From the sequence record MZ234035.1: a stretch of 64,000 nucleotides of DNA. One strand, written 5' to 3'. Of the stretch, positions 2,184 to 17,464 are shown one piece after another; positions within the stretch are counted from its first letter, which is position 1; each line of letters starts with the position of its first letter. A program made the translations under genes and the position numbers. Origin of the DNA: Escherichia phage vB_EcoM-G3F7. The notes under the pieces were generated by a model. The model worked only from the letters and a program-made list of their open reading frames with translations, was not told where the DNA came from and ran no database searches.

Positions 2184-3212
2184 ATGTCATCAATACCTTG
2201 GATTGATAATGAGTTTGCATACCGTGCATTAGCTCATTTACCTAAATTCACACAAGTAAATAATAGTTCAACTTTTAAATTACGGTTTAGATGCCCAGTT
2301 TGTGGAGATTCAAAAACCGACCAGAATAAAGCCCGTGGATGGTATTATGGTGATAATAATGAAGGAAATATTCATTGTTATAACTGTAACTATCATGCAC
2401 CAATCGGAATATATTTAAAGGAGTTTGAACCTGATTTATATCGTGAGTATATCTTTGAAATAAGAAAAGAAAAAGGTAAAAGTCGTCCAGTAGAAAAACC
2501 TAAAGAACTTCCTAAACAACCTGAGAAGAAAATAATTAAATCTCTTCCGTCATGTGTTAGATTAGATAAACTGGCGGAAGACCATCCAATTATAAAATAT
2601 GTAAAAGCTCGTTGTATTCCAAAGGATAAATGGAAATATCTTTGGTTTACAACCGAATGGCCTAAATTAGTTAATAGCATAGCACCGGGAACATATAAAA
2701 AGGAAATTTCTGAGCCTCGTCTTGTTATTCCAATTTATAATGCTAATGGAAAAGCTGAGTCTTTTCAAGGACGCGCATTAAAGAAAGATGCTCCTCAAAA
2801 ATATATCACCATCAAAGCTTATCCTGAAGCAACAAAAATTTATGGAGTCGAACGAGTTAAAGATGGTGATGTATATGTTCTAGAAGGACCTATAGATTCA
2901 CTTTTTATTGAAAATGGTATAGCTATTACGGGTGGTCAATTAGACCTAGAAGTTGTTCCATTTAAAGATAGACGAGTGTGGGTTTTAGATAATGAACCTC
3001 GTCACCCTGACACTATTAAACGAATGACTAAATTAGTTGATGCAGGAGAAAGGGTTATGTTTTGGGATAAATCTCCCTGGAAATCAAAAGATGTTAATGA
3101 TATGATTAGAAAGGAAGGTGCAACCACTGAACAAATTATGGAATATATGAAAAATAATATTGCCCAGGGGTTAATGGCTAAAATGCGGCTATCTAAATAT
3201 GCTAAGATTTAA
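2184..3212 (+). CDS. 61: DNA primase gp61
   Basis: 342 aa, zinc-ribbon CPVCGDS...CYNC plus TOPRIM-like region; matches T4 gp61 as recalled. Confidence 0.93.
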   Translation: MSSIPWIDNEFAYRALAHLPKFTQVNNSSTFKLRFRCPVCGDSKTDQNKARGWYYGDNNEGNIHCYNCNYHAPIGIYLKEFEPDLYREYIFEIRKEKGKSRPVEKPKELPKQPEKKIIKSLPSCVRLDKLAEDHPIIKYVKARCIPKDKWKYLWFTTEWPKLVNSIAPGTYKKEISEPRLVIPIYNANGKAESFQGRALKKDAPQKYITIKAYPEATKIYGVERVKDGDVYVLEGPIDSLFIENGIAITGGQLDLEVVPFKDRRVWVLDNEPRHPDTIKRMTKLVDAGERVMFWDKSPWKSKDVNDMIRKEGATTEQIMEYMKNNIAQGLMAKMRLSKYAKI

Positions 3213-3409
3213 ATTAACCCAACTAAAGCAAATGCTAAATCTACGAATGTATCAAGAGTAACTACTGGAATACTAACGCCATGAGCAATAGCAACTGGCG
3301 ATAAAACAAAATTCCAAAGTAAAATTCCTATCATAGCAGTAATAGTAAAAGCTATACGTTTCTTATTACCTTTTATGGCATTAACAAGTGCCATTAATTT
3401 TTGTACCAT
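3209..3409 (-). CDS. Hypothetical small membrane protein, antisense to the early gene block
   Basis: 66-aa hydrophobic ORF; ATG at 3409 preceded on the minus strand by AAGGAGG with a 4-nt spacer; its stop overlaps the gene 61 stop tail-to-tail. Confidence 0.4.
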   Translation of the reverse strand: MVQKLMALVNAIKGNKKRIAFTITAMIGILLWNFVLSPVAIAHGVSIPVVTLDTFVDLAFALVGLI

Positions 3410-3421
3410 ATGTCCTCCTTA

Positions 3422-3446
3422 TTGCTTTATATATTTATTGTATAAT
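3422..3446 (+). promoter_or_regulatory. Candidate MotA-dependent middle promoter upstream of gene 56
   Basis: MotA-box-like TTGCTTTA at 3422-3429, 11-nt gap, TATAAT at 3441-3446. Confidence 0.4.
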
Positions 3447-3482
3447 TAATCTACTAACCCATGAATTGAAAGGAAAAATAAC

Positions 3483-3998
3483 ATGCCACATTTCAACGAA
3501 TGTAGTCAACTGATCGAAGGCGCTGATAAAGCTCAAAATGAATATTGGGATATTCTCGGTGATGAAAAAGACCCGCTGCAGGTAATGCTTGATATGCAGA
3601 AATCTTTACAGATTCGTTTAGCAAATGACCGCGAATACTGTTATCATCCAGATAAATTAGAAACTGCCGGTGATGTTGTTTCTTGGATGCGTGAACAAAA
3701 AGACTGTATTGATGATGAATTCCGCGAACTTCTGACTTCTCTTGGTGAAATGTCACGTGGTGAAAAAGATGCATCGGCAGTTTGGAAAAAATGGAAAGCA
3801 CGTTATATTGAAGCGCAAGAAAAACGCATTGATGAAATGTCCCCAGAAGATCAGCTCGAAATTAAATTTGAGCTTGTGGATATATTTCATTTCGTATTAA
3901 ATATGTTTGCTGGCCTTGGAATGAATGCGGAAGAAATCTTTAAACTTTATTATTTGAAAAATAAACATAATTTTGAACGTCAAGATAATGGGTATTAA
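3483..3998 (+). CDS. 56: dCTPase/dCTP pyrophosphatase gp56 (MazG-like)
   Basis: 171 aa MPHFNECSQLIEGADKAQNEYWDILGDEKDPLQVMLDMQ...; near-identical to T4 gp56 as recalled. Confidence 0.93.
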   Translation: MPHFNECSQLIEGADKAQNEYWDILGDEKDPLQVMLDMQKSLQIRLANDREYCYHPDKLETAGDVVSWMREQKDCIDDEFRELLTSLGEMSRGEKDASAVWKKWKARYIEAQEKRIDEMSPEDQLEIKFELVDIFHFVLNMFAGLGMNAEEIFKLYYLKNKHNFERQDNGY

Positions 3999-4662
3999 AC
4001 AAAAATTTTATAGAACATATATCGTAAAAGTTAGGACGCCGAAAGGCGTCTTTTGGTACGCTGGGAAACATGAATCATTTATTGTAAATCCATATGATGA
4101 TAAATATCCGGGGTCAGGCAAAATACTATGGAACATATATCGTAAGTATGGTTTTAATTATAAAATACGTTGGTCAAAATGCCATGGTTCTAGAGAAAAA
4201 TCATATGAAGTTGAACGCGAGCTAATATCTGCATTAAAACGTAAACACCCAGATACTTGCATTAATATTTCTCCTGGTGGTCAGGGTGGAGAAGGAAGAA
4301 AATGGACTGAGCAACAACGATTAGAACATAAACTTAGATTAAACAATCCTGAAACAAAAACTCGGATGAAGAATTCACAACGTATAGCCCAAAATAGAGC
4401 AGAACGAAAAGCTCGGCAATCTGAAGTAATGAAAAAGTTTTATTCGAATGGCGGAAATAAAAAGATTTCAGAAGGAACTTCAAGGGCGCAAAGAAAAGCG
4501 CCGCATTGGCATGAACCGCTTAAAAGCGAAATACATGAGTTATGGGTTTCTTTAGGTAAACCAGCAACAGGCCCGGTTGTAAAGGCGCTTAAAGGAAAAT
4601 ATGATGTAACAAGTTCAGCTCTTAAGAATTTAATTTACTTATTCAGAAAAGAAGATGTATAA
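3973..4662 (+). mobile_element. Free-standing GIY-YIG homing endonuclease (SegF-like position between 56 and soc)
   Basis: 229-aa ORF with GIY-YIG-like motifs (TYIVKV...WYAGKH; NISPGGQGGEGRKW); overlaps 3' end of gene 56; alternative ATG at 3988. Confidence 0.6.
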
Positions 4663-12284: not shown

Positions 12285-12314
12285 GTTTACTTCCTCGGTT
12301 AGTTGTGGTATTAT
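12285..12314 (+). promoter_or_regulatory. T4-type early promoter
   Basis: GTTTAC 12285-12290, 18-nt spacer, TATTAT 12309-12314. Confidence 0.4.
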
Positions 12315-12341
12315 AACACCATAGCTACTGAGGATAATAAA

Positions 12342-12842
12342 ATGAAAATTTATCGTGTTGAATCATCGTTTAGTATTCTTGATTATGAAGATGCTATAAC
12401 AATACGTCGAAATCTTTGTGTTCAAATAACGCCGTACAGGAGTATAATAGATTCATGGAGCGAAGAGTGGCTATTACACGTAGGTTATGACAGACCTAAT
12501 TTTATGCATCATAGCGATAATAATAAAAGAATTCCTTTACCACACGAAGATAAACTATTAGTTAAAAACGCTAATATAGTAATTAATACTAAGTTCAAGA
12601 AAGATTATGTTGGAGTAGAATATCATATTCCAGGATGGTTTATAGCTCTTTATCATTTTGCTTTCGCTAGCGAATATGATATGATGAGATGGTTCACACG
12701 AGAAGAGCGTGAAGAATTAGCTTCGAAAGGATTTTATCTTGCTGTATACGAAGTACCAGATGACCAAGTTATCGTTGGCGGGCATCAAGTAATGTTCCGT
12801 AAATCCCATGCTGAACTTGTAGATTTTATTGAAATGAGATAA
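12342..12842 (+). CDS. Hypothetical protein (166 aa)
   Basis: Track ORF 12303..12842 begins with TTG inside the promoter; ATG 12342 follows GAGGA. Confidence 0.5.
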   Translation: MKIYRVESSFSILDYEDAITIRRNLCVQITPYRSIIDSWSEEWLLHVGYDRPNFMHHSDNNKRIPLPHEDKLLVKNANIVINTKFKKDYVGVEYHIPGWFIALYHFAFASEYDMMRWFTREEREELASKGFYLAVYEVPDDQVIVGGHQVMFRKSHAELVDFIEMR

Positions 12843-12844
12843 TT

Positions 12845-13390
12845 ATGAAATTTAATTATAATCCTGAATACACACCGAATCCGGCAGCTAAACTGATTGA
12901 TTTTGACGTTGTAAGTACTTATGTATGCCCTGTTAAACCACTGGAAATTAAGGAACCTACTATGACTACCGCTATTGAAATCGGCAAAACCTACAAACTG
13001 GTTGAACCTAAAATTAAAACTAATGCCTTGATTTCTGGTCATAAAACTCTGACTGATGTTTTTGGCGAAGGCGAATTTATTGTTGAAGAATTTGCCAAAA
13101 GTGAGTGGTTTGACAAATCTTACGTCATCCACGGTCGCCGGTTAGATAATAACAAAATAAAGAAAAACCTGGTTTATGAAGATGAGTTCATCCTGTTCCA
13201 AGAAGTTGAAGAACAAGACCCTACAGACCTGTTGTGTGCTGCTGTGTCTATCCGTCGTCCTTTTGATAATCCTATCTGTGGTTGGGTAACAGACCAGTGG
13301 ATTGAAGATGGTGTTGAGCTTCTGAACGTTGTCCATGCAGGAGATTTTAGTGTAGTACCTCGTAGTGCGGTGGTAGCTATTTTGAATTAA
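12845..13390 (+). CDS. MotB-paralog protein (motB.1 position)
   Basis: 181 aa; C-terminal CGWVTDQWIEDGVELLNVVHAGDFSVVP is clearly paralogous to CGYITDQWVEDGVKLYNVVFLGTYKVIP in the next ORF. Confidence 0.5.
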   Translation: MKFNYNPEYTPNPAAKLIDFDVVSTYVCPVKPLEIKEPTMTTAIEIGKTYKLVEPKIKTNALISGHKTLTDVFGEGEFIVEEFAKSEWFDKSYVIHGRRLDNNKIKKNLVYEDEFILFQEVEEQDPTDLLCAAVSIRRPFDNPICGWVTDQWIEDGVELLNVVHAGDFSVVPRSAVVAILN

Positions 13391-13393
13391 TAG

Positions 13394-13422
13394 TTTACAA
13401 ACTCTTGGGACCAGAGTATAAT
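13394..13422 (+). promoter_or_regulatory. T4-type early promoter
   Basis: GTTTAC 13394-13399, 17-nt spacer, TATAAT 13417-13422. Confidence 0.5.
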
Positions 13423-13466
13423 GGTCCTGTGGAGTATAAAATCTTTTTAACAAGTGAGAGATAACT

Positions 13467-13955
13467 ATGATTATTAATATTGGTGAAATTGCTCGTGTAT
13501 CTGATAAATCCCGTTCTAAAGCAGCAGGAAAATTGGTCGAAGTTGTAAGCATTCAGCTTAAACACGGTGTTAAAGATGAAGATTCTGAAGTAAAAGTACG
13601 TATCATTGCTAAAGATGGAATGTCTAAGCCCCAGTTTGGTTATGTTCGATGGAAATTTCTTGAGCCTGCGTTTTTGAAAGCTGTTCCTGCTAAAGGAATT
13701 GAAACGATTGATACTTCGCATGTAGGTGTAGACTTTAAGTGGAAACTCGGTCAAGCTATCAAGTTCATTGCTCCTTGTGAATTTAAATTTATCAAAGATG
13801 ATGGAAAGGCTGTTTATACTCGCGCTATGTGTGGATACATTACCGATCAATGGGTAGAAGATGGCGTTAAGTTGTACAACGTGGTATTTTTAGGAACATA
13901 TAAAGTCATTCCTGAAAGTTGGATTAAACACTACAGCAATGCTCTCTATGCATAA
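13467..13955 (+). CDS. motB: MotB-like protein, assigned by size (162 aa) and synteny
   Basis: 162 aa; position between dexA and gene 39 as T4 motB; paralog of upstream ORF. Confidence 0.45.
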   Translation: MIINIGEIARVSDKSRSKAAGKLVEVVSIQLKHGVKDEDSEVKVRIIAKDGMSKPQFGYVRWKFLEPAFLKAVPAKGIETIDTSHVGVDFKWKLGQAIKFIAPCEFKFIKDDGKAVYTRAMCGYITDQWVEDGVKLYNVVFLGTYKVIPESWIKHYSNALYA

Positions 13956-14129: not shown

Positions 14130-14345
14130 ATGAAACGTAAAATTGTTCAGAATTGCACTAATGATGAATTTGAAGATGTATTATTCGATCCAGATTTGGT
14201 AGTAGTTCAAAAGGAACACACTATCAAGTTTACTCACTTGACTTCGGTTTATGTGTATGAAAAGGTTGGGGATAAACAACCAATTTACGGTGTATTTCGT
14301 GAAATCACTGAAGATGGTACAACTTACTGGAAGGAAATTTATTAA
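14130..14345 (+). CDS. cef: Cef-like protein, by size and synteny
   Basis: Track ORF 14127..14345 starts ATGATG; second ATG gives 71 aa, the size I recall for T4 Cef; GAGGA SD. Confidence 0.4.
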
Positions 14346-14758
14346 TGGCTATTAAATTTGAAGTTAATAAATGGTATCAATTTAAAAATAAACAAGCTCA
14401 AGAAAATTTTATTAAAGACCATACTGATAACGGAATCTATGCACGCCGTTTAGGTATGCATCCTTTTAAAATTTTAGATGTGGATGCTCTTGGGCGTCCT
14501 ATTAAAATTATGTCATTTGCTGGAAATTTAGTACTATCTTCTGGTAAAGATATTTTGGATGAAGATTTTATTTGGCTTTCATCGAATGAAGCTGAATTCT
14601 TTAATGAAGTTGAAAATCCATACCAGGCAGCTGAAGAGCAGGAAGAATCTGCACCGATAACTGATCAATCTAAATTCCCTGTAATGAAAGTTACTATTGA
14701 AAATGATGAACAGGCATGGTCCTTGTATCAGATGTTGAAAGCTCACTTTAAGGAATAA
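14345..14758 (+). CDS. goF: GoF-like protein, by synteny
   Basis: 137 aa, adjacent to cef-like ORF as in T4. Confidence 0.35.
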
Positions 14759-14939: not shown

Positions 14940-15311
14940 ATGTTTAAAATCGGTAAGAAATATCGCATTCGCGAAGGTGAAGAAAAGAAATATCTATTTT
15001 CTGCTATTTATAGGAATGGTTCTATTAATGCTGTAATATCTACAAGCGAATTTATCGTTGAAGATATGAAAGGTAATAATGTTACAATGATTAGTACAGC
15101 ATCTGGAAATGACGGAAAAATTCTTCACAGTTTTCAGAGTAATGTTCTAATTTATGATGAAGAATTTGACTTCTTCGAAGAAGTTCCCGAAGGTTTTGCT
15201 TTTGAATGCACTATCACTATGAAATCTGGTGACCCTCTTTCTTTTACAGTTAAAGATGAAGGAAGTCGCTTGAGAATTATTAGTCTTCTTCAAGCCATTA
15301 AATTTAAGTGA
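14940..15311 (+). CDS. Hypothetical protein (123 aa)
   Basis: Track ORF, ATG start. Confidence 0.5.
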   Translation: MFKIGKKYRIREGEEKKYLFSAIYRNGSINAVISTSEFIVEDMKGNNVTMISTASGNDGKILHSFQSNVLIYDEEFDFFEEVPEGFAFECTITMKSGDPLSFTVKDEGSRLRIISLLQAIKFK

Positions 15312-15619: not shown

Positions 15620-15646
15620 ATTCCCGAAACCAAACGAGGATAAGTG

Positions 15647-17464
15647 ATGATTAAGAATGAAATTAAAATTCTGAGCGATATTGAACATATCAAAAAGCGT
15701 AGCGGCATGTACATTGGCTCTTCTGCTAATGAAATGCATGAGCGCTTTCTGTTTGGTAAATGGGAAAGTGTTCAGTATGTACCTGGTCTTGTTAAGCTTA
15801 TTGATGAAATTATCGATAACTCAGTAGATGAAGGTATTCGTACTAAGTTTAAATTCGCAAATAAAATTAATGTTACTATTAAAAACAATCAAGTAACAGT
15901 TGAAGATAACGGTCGTGGTATTCCACAAGCGATGGTTAAAACACCTACCGGTGAAGAAATTCCTGGTCCAGTTGCTGCATGGACTATTCCAAAAGCGGGT
16001 GGTAACTTCGGTGATGATAAAGAACGCGTCACCGGCGGTATGAATGGTGTTGGTTCTAGTTTGACAAACATTTTTTCTGTGATGTTTGTCGGTGAAACTG
16101 GTGATGGTCAAAATAATATTGTAGTTCGTTGTTCAAATGGCATGGAAAATAAATCATGGGAAGATATTCCTGGAAAATGGAAAGGAACTCGTGTTACTTT
16201 CATTCCAGATTTTATGTCATTTGAAACTAATGAATTATCTCAAGTTTATCTTGACATTACACTAGATCGTCTCCAGACACTTGCTGTTGTTTATCCTGAT
16301 ATTCAATTTACCTTTAATGGTAAAAAGGTTCAGGGCAATTTTAAGAAATATGCACGACAGTATGATGAACATGCTATCGTTCAAGAACAAGAAAATTGTT
16401 CTATTGCGGTTGGTCGTTCACCCGACGGTTTTCGTCAATTAACATACGTCAATAACATTCATACTAAGAATGGTGGCCATCACATTGACTGTGTTATGGA
16501 TGATATTTGTGAAGACCTTATTCCACAAATCAAACGCAAGTTCAAAATTGATGTAACTAAAGCACGCGTTAAAGAATGTTTGACTATCGTTATGTTTGTT
16601 CGTGATATGAAAAACATGCGATTTGATTCTCAAACTAAAGAGCGTTTGACTTCTCCATTTGGTGAAATCCGTAGTCATATTCAGCTTGATGCTAAAAAGA
16701 TTTCACGTGCTATTTTGAATAATGAAGCAATTCTGATGCCAATTATTGAAGCTGCTTTGGCTCGTAAATTGGCGGCAGAAAAAGCAGCAGAAACTAAAGC
16801 AGCTAAAAAGGCATCTAAAGCTAAGGTTCATAAACATATCAAAGCGAATCTTTGTGGTAAAGATGCTGATACTACATTGTTCTTGACTGAGGGTGATTCT
16901 GCTATCGGATATCTTATTGATGTTCGTAATAAAGAACTTCATGGTGGTTATCCATTACGTGGTAAAGTTCTCAACAGTTGGGGTATGTCATATGCTGATA
17001 TGCTTAAAAACAAAGAACTATTTGATATTTGCGCAATCACTGGATTAGTTCTTGGTGAAAAAGCTGAAAACTTGAATTATCATAATATTGCTATTATGAC
17101 TGATGCTGACCATGATGGTCTAGGAAGCATTTATCCTTCTCTGCTTGGATTTTTTAGTAATTGGCCAGAACTGTTTGAGCAAGGAAGAATTCGCTTCGTC
17201 AAAACTCCTGTAATCATCGCTCAGGTCGGTAAAAAACAAGAATGGTTTTATACAGTCGCTGAATATGAGAGTGCCAAAGATGCTCTACCTAAACATAGCA
17301 TCCGTTATATTAAAGGACTTGGCTCTTTGGAAAAATCTGAATATCGTGAGATGATTCAAAACCCAGTATATGATGTTGTTAAACTTCCTGAGAACTGGAA
17401 AGAGCTTTTTGAAATGCTCATGGGAGATAATGCTGACCTTCGTAAAGAATGGATGAGCCAGTAG
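15647..17464 (+). CDS. 39: DNA topoisomerase II large (ATPase, GyrB-like) subunit, uninterrupted 39+60-type fusion
   Basis: 605 aa from ATG 15647 (track ORF starts at GTG 15644); GHKL ATPase plus TOPRIM region in a single ORF. Confidence 0.9.
   Translation: MIKNEIKILSDIEHIKKRSGMYIGSSANEMHERFLFGKWESVQYVPGLVKLIDEIIDNSVDEGIRTKFKFANKINVTIKNNQVTVEDNGRGIPQAMVKTPTGEEIPGPVAAWTIPKAGGNFGDDKERVTGGMNGVGSSLTNIFSVMFVGETGDGQNNIVVRCSNGMENKSWEDIPGKWKGTRVTFIPDFMSFETNELSQVYLDITLDRLQTLAVVYPDIQFTFNGKKVQGNFKKYARQYDEHAIVQEQENCSIAVGRSPDGFRQLTYVNNIHTKNGGHHIDCVMDDICEDLIPQIKRKFKIDVTKARVKECLTIVMFVRDMKNMRFDSQTKERLTSPFGEIRSHIQLDAKKISRAILNNEAILMPIIEAALARKLAAEKAAETKAAKKASKAKVHKHIKANLCGKDADTTLFLTEGDSAIGYLIDVRNKELHGGYPLRGKVLNSWGMSYADMLKNKELFDICAITGLVLGEKAENLNYHNIAIMTDADHDGLGSIYPSLLGFFSNWPELFEQGRIRFVKTPVIIAQVGKKQEWFYTVAEYESAKDALPKHSIRYIKGLGSLEKSEYREMIQNPVYDVVKLPENWKELFEMLMGDNADLRKEWMSQ

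Follow-up and report, generated by a model that had tools for sequence, protein, structure and literature searches.

We analyzed a stretch of 64 kb (the window) from the genome of Escherichia phage vB_EcoM-G3F7 (MZ234035.1), in which two adjacent genes on the + strand code for proteins of 181 and 162 aa. A 4.2-kb stretch around this pair is 100% identical in the Escherichia phages vB_EcoM-CHD94UKE2 and G3F10 and shows 90–99% identity to hundreds of Tequatrovirus genomes. Judged from its sequence the window is therefore assigned to Tequatrovirus (T4-like). On the + strand the genes follow each other in the order dexA, a motB.2-like gene, the 181-aa ORF, motB, cef, goF, three small ORFs and gene 39. 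Synteny with T4 and annotated relatives identifies this as the T4 order in reverse complement. The pair and its features are as follows (coordinates refer to the window, evidence in brackets):

12845–13390, + strand: 181-aa gene, an allele of the motB.1 family (phrog_2333), located between the motB.2-like gene and motB (ORF, synteny, PHROG match)
12845–12967, + strand: N-terminal tail of the 181-aa protein, residues 1–41, predicted to be disordered (pLDDT 35–46)
12893–12955, + strand: linker motif LIDFDVVSTYVCPVKPLEIKE, residues 17–37 of the 181-aa protein (tail HMM)
12974–13210, + strand: N-terminal small β-barrel of the 181-aa protein, residues 44–122, GoF/LSm-like and acidic (model, phrog_622, BLASTP)
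13214–13384, + strand: shared C-terminal barrel in the 181-aa protein, residues 124–180, MotB.1 type (DPTDLLC...GWVTDQWIEDGVELLNVVHAG...VVPRS; PHROG, hhalign, model)
13262–13366, + strand: core block within this barrel, residues 140–174 of the 181-aa ORF (BLASTP, hhalign)
13394–13422, + strand: promoter-like site TTTACA-17-TATAAT between the 181-aa gene and motB, inside a stable hairpin (11/12 match)
13467–13955, + strand: motB, 162 aa (T4 MotB identity, PF17613, phrog_1671)
13467–13670, + strand: N-terminal KOW-like barrel of MotB, residues 1–68, basic (model, charge, published KOW prediction)
13728–13934, + strand: shared C-terminal barrel in MotB, residues 88–156, with a β-hairpin extension of ~15 residues in comparison to the 181-aa protein (PHROG, hhalign, model)
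13815–13919, + strand: core block in MotB, residues 117–151 (BLASTP)

Promoter-like matches occur in the region at chance frequency (20 found, 22.3 expected), and we therefore gave weight only to the T4-conserved 11/12 site upstream of motB. This site is identical in T4 and is a putative motB promoter. A further match overlapping the start codon of the 181-aa gene was given no weight for the same reason. The RNA of the motB.1–motB intergenic region (13380–13470) folds with a free energy of −23.7 kcal/mol (z=−3.25). In this fold a 12-bp stem surrounds the −10 box of the promoter-like site; the Shine-Dalgarno region of motB is paired with a second hairpin. The intergenic sequence is near-identical in T4.

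Some of the surrounding genes show peculiarities of their own. The motB.2-like gene (12303–12842, + strand) is delimited mechanically by a TTG at 12303, resulting in 179 aa, while relatives annotate the ATG at 12342 and a protein of 166 aa (MKIYRVES...). In phage WilhelmHis the motB.2-like gene is present as two ORFs. In addition, in a 43-aa database protein (P0242) the motB.2 N-terminus is fused to the final 28 residues of MotB.1, implying a variant in which most of motB.2 and motB.1 has been deleted. Downstream of the pair, a 123-aa ORF (14940–15311, + strand) is a GoF-family paralog (phrog_622, E=1.1e-28) situated two genes downstream of goF (14345–14758); the small ORFs that T4 has here, 39.1 and 39.2, are different ones. 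Finally, gene 39 (15644–17464, + strand) codes for a single topoisomerase large subunit of 606 aa. In T4 this subunit is split into gp39 (~516 aa) and gp60, and the gene 39/60 split appears to be absent from this region of the phage.

Identity of the two proteins and their shared C-terminal block

The initial annotation had taken one of the two copies for a probable MotB-type protein and the other for an uncharacterised paralog, and both assignments hold. The 162-aa ORF is 95% identical to T4 MotB over its full length. It matches Pfam PF17613 with residues 1–162 on model positions 1–162 (E=1.5e-107, 357 bits at a cut-off of 25) as well as phrog_1671 (E=5.2e-77). As in T4, it is flanked by motB.1 and cef and lies upstream of goF and gene 39.

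The 181-aa ORF sits in the motB.1 position and is poorly characterised. It matches phrog_2333 over its full length (residues 1–181 on profile positions 1–210, E=2.8e-89), the same PHROG that is matched by T4 MotB.1 (143 aa, E=1.8e-68). PF17613 is matched at model positions 117–153 only, with 34.6 bits (cut-off 25). The ORF carries the C-terminal MotB signature GW[VI]TDQW[IV]EDG..L.N.V. The KOW-like N-terminal barrel of a full-length MotB (V.VS..SRSKAAG) is absent from it, and a KOW HMM gives no match. Homologues of ~180 aa share 73–94% identity with the ORF among the best 120 of 233 matches with E≤0.001, and the identity to ECML134_009 is 93%. The N-terminal region type is carried by ~380 phage records. 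At least one GenBank record annotates the gene as “transcription regulator MotB domain-containing protein”. Going by profile match and gene position we regard the 181-aa ORF as a common allele of motB.1.

NCBIfam holds zero models matching the three proteins tested, and a profile search against PDB sequences gave zero matches, so that solved structures are undetectable by sequence. Weak Pfam matches to Rrp44 CSD1 (E=0.076) and, for motB.2, to SRA (E=0.097) lie below threshold. The FRD2 match of the 123-aa ORF (E=0.022) is below threshold as well, yet it alone among the weak matches agrees with other evidence.

We then assessed the C-terminal block that had been noticed in the two adjacent ORFs. 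Both block peptides were found, and in a six-frame motif scan of the 64-kb window they occur at these two places only. BLASTP of the 181-aa against the 162-aa ORF aligns 35 residues with zero gaps, of which 18 are identical and 26 positive (E=1e-12). The Smith-Waterman score (BLOSUM62) of the two ORFs is 115, while 5000 shuffled controls reached a mean of 29.6 (sd 4.8) and a maximum of 61. None of the 5000 shuffles attained the observed score (z=17.7, Gumbel p ~6e-11), and comparison with shuffled controls thus decisively failed to refute the block. Alignment of the two family profiles with hhalign gives a probability of 98.6% and E=4.9e-16 over 36 columns. When the block is removed, no similarity is left between the two ORFs: the Smith-Waterman score drops to 30, in comparison to 27.2±4.9 for shuffles (z=0.6).

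The directly alignable block is short with its 35 residues, which would leave some room for chance similarity, low complexity or a recent patch of gene conversion. Neither the shuffled controls nor the profile E-value are compatible with chance, and the block is furthermore conserved across several genera of Tevenvirinae, in relatives of MotB as well as of MotB.1. At the DNA level the two copies of the block are only 59% identical (62/105). The relationship is therefore old, and recent gene conversion is ruled out. We consider an origin of the block by any of these routes to be practically out of the question. Conversely, we hold the identities of the two genes together with their homology at the domain level to be close to certain.

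Domain architecture of the two proteins

Direct hhalign comparison of the family profiles reaches only 36 columns, and the wider homology was established via intermediates and PHROG cross-matches. Bridging relatives from other Tevenvirinae combine a KOW-like N-terminus with a MotB.1-type C-terminus. With hhalign, these KOW-type intermediates can be aligned to the MotB family across 128 columns (E=1.1e-27) and to the 181-aa family across 56 columns (residues 125–180, E=1e-30). In the cross-matches, residues 122–179 of the 181-aa protein match the MotB-like phrog_1671 (E=1.2e-16), and residues 80–152 of MotB match phrog_2333 (E=4.9e-12). Since intermediates and cross-matches agree, the homologous unit is the entire C-terminal domain. 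It comprises ~57 residues in the 181-aa protein and ~70 residues in MotB, the latter with an insertion of ~15 residues.

AlphaFold2 models were built from the family alignments (mean pLDDT 76 and 83, ~90 in the C-terminal domains). Both proteins are modelled as two small β-barrels with a linker of low confidence, and every barrel of both models has a short helix between the fourth and fifth strands. The C-terminal barrel of the 181-aa protein is predicted to consist of five strands with this helix between β4 and β5 (residues 125–180, pLDDT ~90). The C-terminal barrel of MotB occupies residues 90–156 in the model, with strands at residues 97–109, 115–131, 134–141, 144–149 and 153–156 (pLDDT >90), including a long β-hairpin from 97 to 131. 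In the models the C-terminal barrel looks like an SH3/Tudor-like five-strand fold, with the signature GW[VI]TDQW[IV]EDG[VE][KE]L[LY]N[VI]V.

The N-terminal halves are of two different kinds. For the 181-aa protein the barrel is modelled as β-α-β-β-β-(short helix)-β with a pLDDT of 77–89. Residues 44–125 match phrog_622, the GoF family, weakly but consistently (E=2.9e-4), and this profile match together with the five-strand bent sheet and the helix after β1 in the model points to membership in the GoF/LSm group. Among the N-terminal domains compared, the closest non-allelic relative is that of the 123-aa ORF (BLASTP in a small database: 82 aligned residues, 28% identical, E=4e-5). The net charge of the barrel is −3. 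The N-terminal barrel of MotB has a net charge of +4 and a pI of 9.6; in the model it occupies residues 1–67 and has five strands, the last two of which are connected by a short helix, and a KOW domain has been predicted for it previously (PMC7827196). A relationship between the KOW and LSm N-terminal profiles was undetected by hhalign (probability 0.1%). The two N-terminal barrels are not detectably related and belong to different families.

The tail of the 181-aa protein contains the linker motif, for which the family pattern is [IV]xDxD[VI]xxxY...P[LI]. The tail HMM finds this motif also in Mosigvirus MotB.1 (domain E=1.4e-7) and in a Kanagawavirus MotB-family protein (E=6e-5). The 181-aa protein has the motif ahead of the barrel, Mosigvirus MotB.1 and KOW-type relatives have it between the N- and C-terminal barrels.

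An internal ATG is located within the 181-aa gene at 12962 (M40), with AAGGA upstream at a spacing of 7 nt (12950–12964). K36, E37 and M40 are invariant among close homologues. The 141-aa homologue of PP01 aligns end-to-end to this region of the model and appears to have been annotated from the M40 start. A shorter isoform of 142 aa, produced by internal initiation at M40, is possible. M40 as the sole start of the gene was rejected, since residues 1–39 are conserved and the motif occurs inside the ORFs of other members.

Origin of the tandem pair

An exhaustive search of 1.84 billion representative proteins returned 17 relatives only. All relatives examined have MotB or MotB.1 architectures, and an informative distant homologue is therefore absent. 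A Kanagawavirus genome carries a single gene of the family in the same slot, composed of a KOW barrel, the linker motif and a MotB.1-type C-terminal barrel. For the C-terminal barrel we calculated a neighbour-joining tree from 71 columns (without support values), in which two clades are seen. The first contains the MotB-type barrels, with a KOW N-terminus in every member. The second contains the MotB.1-type barrels, and here the KOW-bearing members lie outside a nested subclade of LSm-bearing members.

The upstream gene is present in several forms. In alleles of 246–250 aa the linker motif is preceded by an additional barrel. According to a DNA alignment the 181-aa allele of the window is 67 codons shorter than the 248-aa alleles, and its residues 1–17 align to the N-terminus of the latter. 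The first ~17 residues look like a remnant of the extra barrel in the 246–250-aa alleles, e.g. of phage NC-G. Other alleles have two tandem barrels or lack the linker motif. Module gain and loss in the upstream copy is continuing. In Mosigvirus SCS57 (2228–4260) we noticed three tandem genes with the C-terminal barrel, coding for a MotB.1-type protein of 164 aa, a MotB of 154 aa and a second MotB of 139 aa. The motB.2-like gene follows these three in SCS57; in Tequatrovirus it precedes the pair.

The initial annotation had explained the pair as tandem paralogs resulting from an old duplication followed by divergence. The age of the event and paralogy at the level of the domain are borne out. 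Paralogy of the whole genes is not, as homology is limited to residues ~124–180 of the 181-aa protein and ~88–156 of MotB and the N-terminal families differ. The simplest reading is a duplication with subsequent replacement of the N-terminal module. The ancestral gene would have had the KOW-motif-CTD arrangement that is still found as a single copy in Kanagawavirus. This gene would have been duplicated in tandem in an old event, after which the N-terminal module of the upstream copy would have been swapped for a GoF-like barrel. Since then the upstream copy would have repeatedly gained and lost modules.

Alternatively, the whole gene could have been duplicated in tandem and the N-terminal halves could have diverged past sequence recognition. 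In the models all four domains are small β-barrels that resemble each other in size and in the short helix between β4 and β5, the whole-family MAFFT alignment does line up N-terminal positions, if few, and the authors of PMC7827196 also suggest a duplication. However, neither profile comparison of KOW against LSm nor the Smith-Waterman score of the N-terminal parts, which equals that of shuffles, gives any sign of common descent. Instead, it is the GoF family and the 123-aa ORF to which the N-terminal barrel of the 181-aa protein shows significant matches. Furthermore, the presence of KOW-bearing proteins inside the MotB.1-type C-terminal clade fits better to module replacement than to gradual divergence. 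Duplication of the whole gene with mere divergence is thus improbable in our view. We favor duplication followed by module replacement. Taken jointly, the motB/motB.1 identity, the two-barrel architecture, this origin and the mechanism proposed in the following section form the explanation that we consider best overall and likely to be correct.

Possible functions and comparison with known systems

T4 MotB binds DNA tightly and non-specifically and is toxic when overexpressed. It co-purifies with H-NS/StpA, alters the H-NS footprint and perturbs H-NS-DNA complexes, part of the H-NS regulon is de-repressed, and burst size increases two-fold (PMC6070864, PMC7827196). With 95% identity between the two proteins, DNA binding and co-purification with H-NS/StpA can presumably be transferred to the 162-aa ORF. 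For MotB.1, an early gene, deletion from T4 had no phenotype and an RNA reporter was unaffected (PMC12152347). In the literature searched, motB.1 is mentioned only in PMC7827196 and PMC12152347.

When comparing the window with T4 we noticed a difference of one base within motB.1. The T4 reference (AF158101.6 / NC_000866.4) reads GATTGGAAGATGG where the window reads GATTGAAGATGG; the site of the extra G is located at ~2292–2310 on the minus strand of AF158101.6, corresponding to 13303–13315 of the window. The re-sequenced T4 genomes MT984581 and KJ477684, which were aligned directly, read GATTGAAGATGG without the extra G. In ten further T4 records as well as RB55 and RB59 the 471-nt query matched over a span of 470 nt, in agreement with the same difference of one base. 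If the extra G is left out, T4 MotB.1 has 143 aa and ends with a complete shared barrel. With the extra G, as annotated, it comprises 119 aa (13.8 kDa), and its last 28 residues are missing, so that most of the shared domain is lost. The only functional study of MotB.1, from 2025, gives a mass of 13.8 kDa for the protein and cites NC_000866.4 for T4 sequences and constructs; a frameshift or truncation of MotB.1 is nowhere mentioned in it (PMC12152347). The truncation of MotB.1 inside the shared domain by an insertion in the T4 reference is of practical interest for those working on T4 early genes.

The two proteins differ in charge, the pI of the whole protein being 4.8 for the 181-aa protein and 9.2 for MotB. 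The C-terminal barrel of the 181-aa protein is acidic (net charge −6, pI 4.1), that of T4-type MotB slightly basic (+2). From the linker to the C-terminus, 23 of the 25 sampled family members are acidic, with net charges from −1 to −13, and the KOW barrels in this sample are mostly basic. Based on this distribution we propose the KOW barrel as the DNA binder and the shared barrel as a protein-interaction module. MotB would bind DNA mainly through its basic KOW barrel, and the C-terminal barrel, conserved and mostly acidic, would be a protein-interaction or assembly module common to both proteins, directing MotB and the 181-aa protein to the same partner or to each other. The 181-aa protein would contribute a different N-terminal ligand module that does not bind DNA. 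This division of labour is suggested by charge, and we put it forward tentatively, as a proposal that may well turn out to be wrong. With its charge of +2, the C-terminal barrel of T4-type MotB may contribute to DNA binding.

A different role for the shared domain would follow from an OB fold. HHpred analysis in PMC7827196 assigned the C-terminal domain of MotB to the cold-shock-type OB fold, which could bind DNA. In that case both proteins would use the shared domain to bind DNA or RNA, which would make the paralog a second binder of nucleic acids. Judged by topology, for which an OB fold would have a helix between β3 and β4, and by nearest structures, the C-terminal barrel does not come out as an OB fold, and the mostly acidic character of the barrel, SH3/Tudor-like in the models, argues against a role in DNA binding. 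We regard nucleic-acid binding by an OB fold as unlikely. Lower still we rate the stronger version of our own proposal, in which the C-terminal barrel serves specifically for docking or oligomerisation, either targeting one host complex, e.g. H-NS/StpA-DNA filaments, or mediating hetero-oligomers of MotB and MotB.1. If it were true, the motB.1 slot would be a cassette in which N-terminal barrels are swapped, added and deleted on a constant docking domain. The family would then represent a modular toolkit for counter-silencing or host takeover instead of unrelated accessory genes. In addition, the published null results for T4 MotB.1 would stem from a protein without most of this domain, and the experiments would have to be repeated.

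The C-terminal relationship of MotB and MotB.1 is correct but already known. Patterson-West et al. 2021 (PMC7827196) described that the two share a conserved C-terminal domain while the N-terminal domains differ, and suggested a duplication; the relationship is also captured by PF17613 and the PHROGs. As a discovery the shared domain therefore matters little. The same paper describes further groups of MotB.1 with other N-terminal domains and includes ECML134_009 in its Table S4. The 181-aa protein corresponds to one of these MotB.1 groups with an N-terminal domain other than that of T4. Besides the insertion in the T4 reference, three refinements can be added. The homologous unit extends beyond the block of ~35 residues to the entire C-terminal barrel with a hairpin insertion in MotB; the SH3/Tudor-like appearance and mostly acidic charge of this barrel speak against a role as the DNA-binding element; and the motB.1 slot gains and loses barrel modules around a conserved linker motif.

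In comparison to known systems, the tandem SH3-like barrels of NusG/Spt5 KOW, tandem Tudor and EF-P domain I show a generic fold resemblance with identities of 6–25% and not family membership. Kim et al. 2025 (PMC12152347) grouped the N-terminal domains of MotB.1, GoF and Frd.2 as LSm-like barrels, and residues 44–122 of the 181-aa protein match this family (phrog_622). GoF and the 123-aa ORF differ from the 181-aa protein in that they have C-terminal regions of their own without the MotB-type barrel. With T4 MotB (PF17613, phrog_1671) the 181-aa ORF shares the C-terminal barrel. Unlike T4 MotB it has neither the KOW-like N-terminal barrel nor the hairpin of ~15 residues, and it is acidic instead of basic. 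A further counterpart is T4 MotB.1 (143 aa in re-sequenced genomes, 119 aa in the reference), which occupies the same slot between motB.2 and motB and belongs to the same PHROG. The C-terminal barrels of the two are of the same subtype, with 60% identity over residues 103–153. BLASTP aligns the two proteins only from the last strand onward (103–153), and the link between their N-terminal barrels, each of which weakly matches the GoF family, is indirect via P0233 and the shared PHROG. In contrast to T4 MotB.1, the 181-aa protein possesses an extra N-terminal tail of 41 residues with the linker motif.
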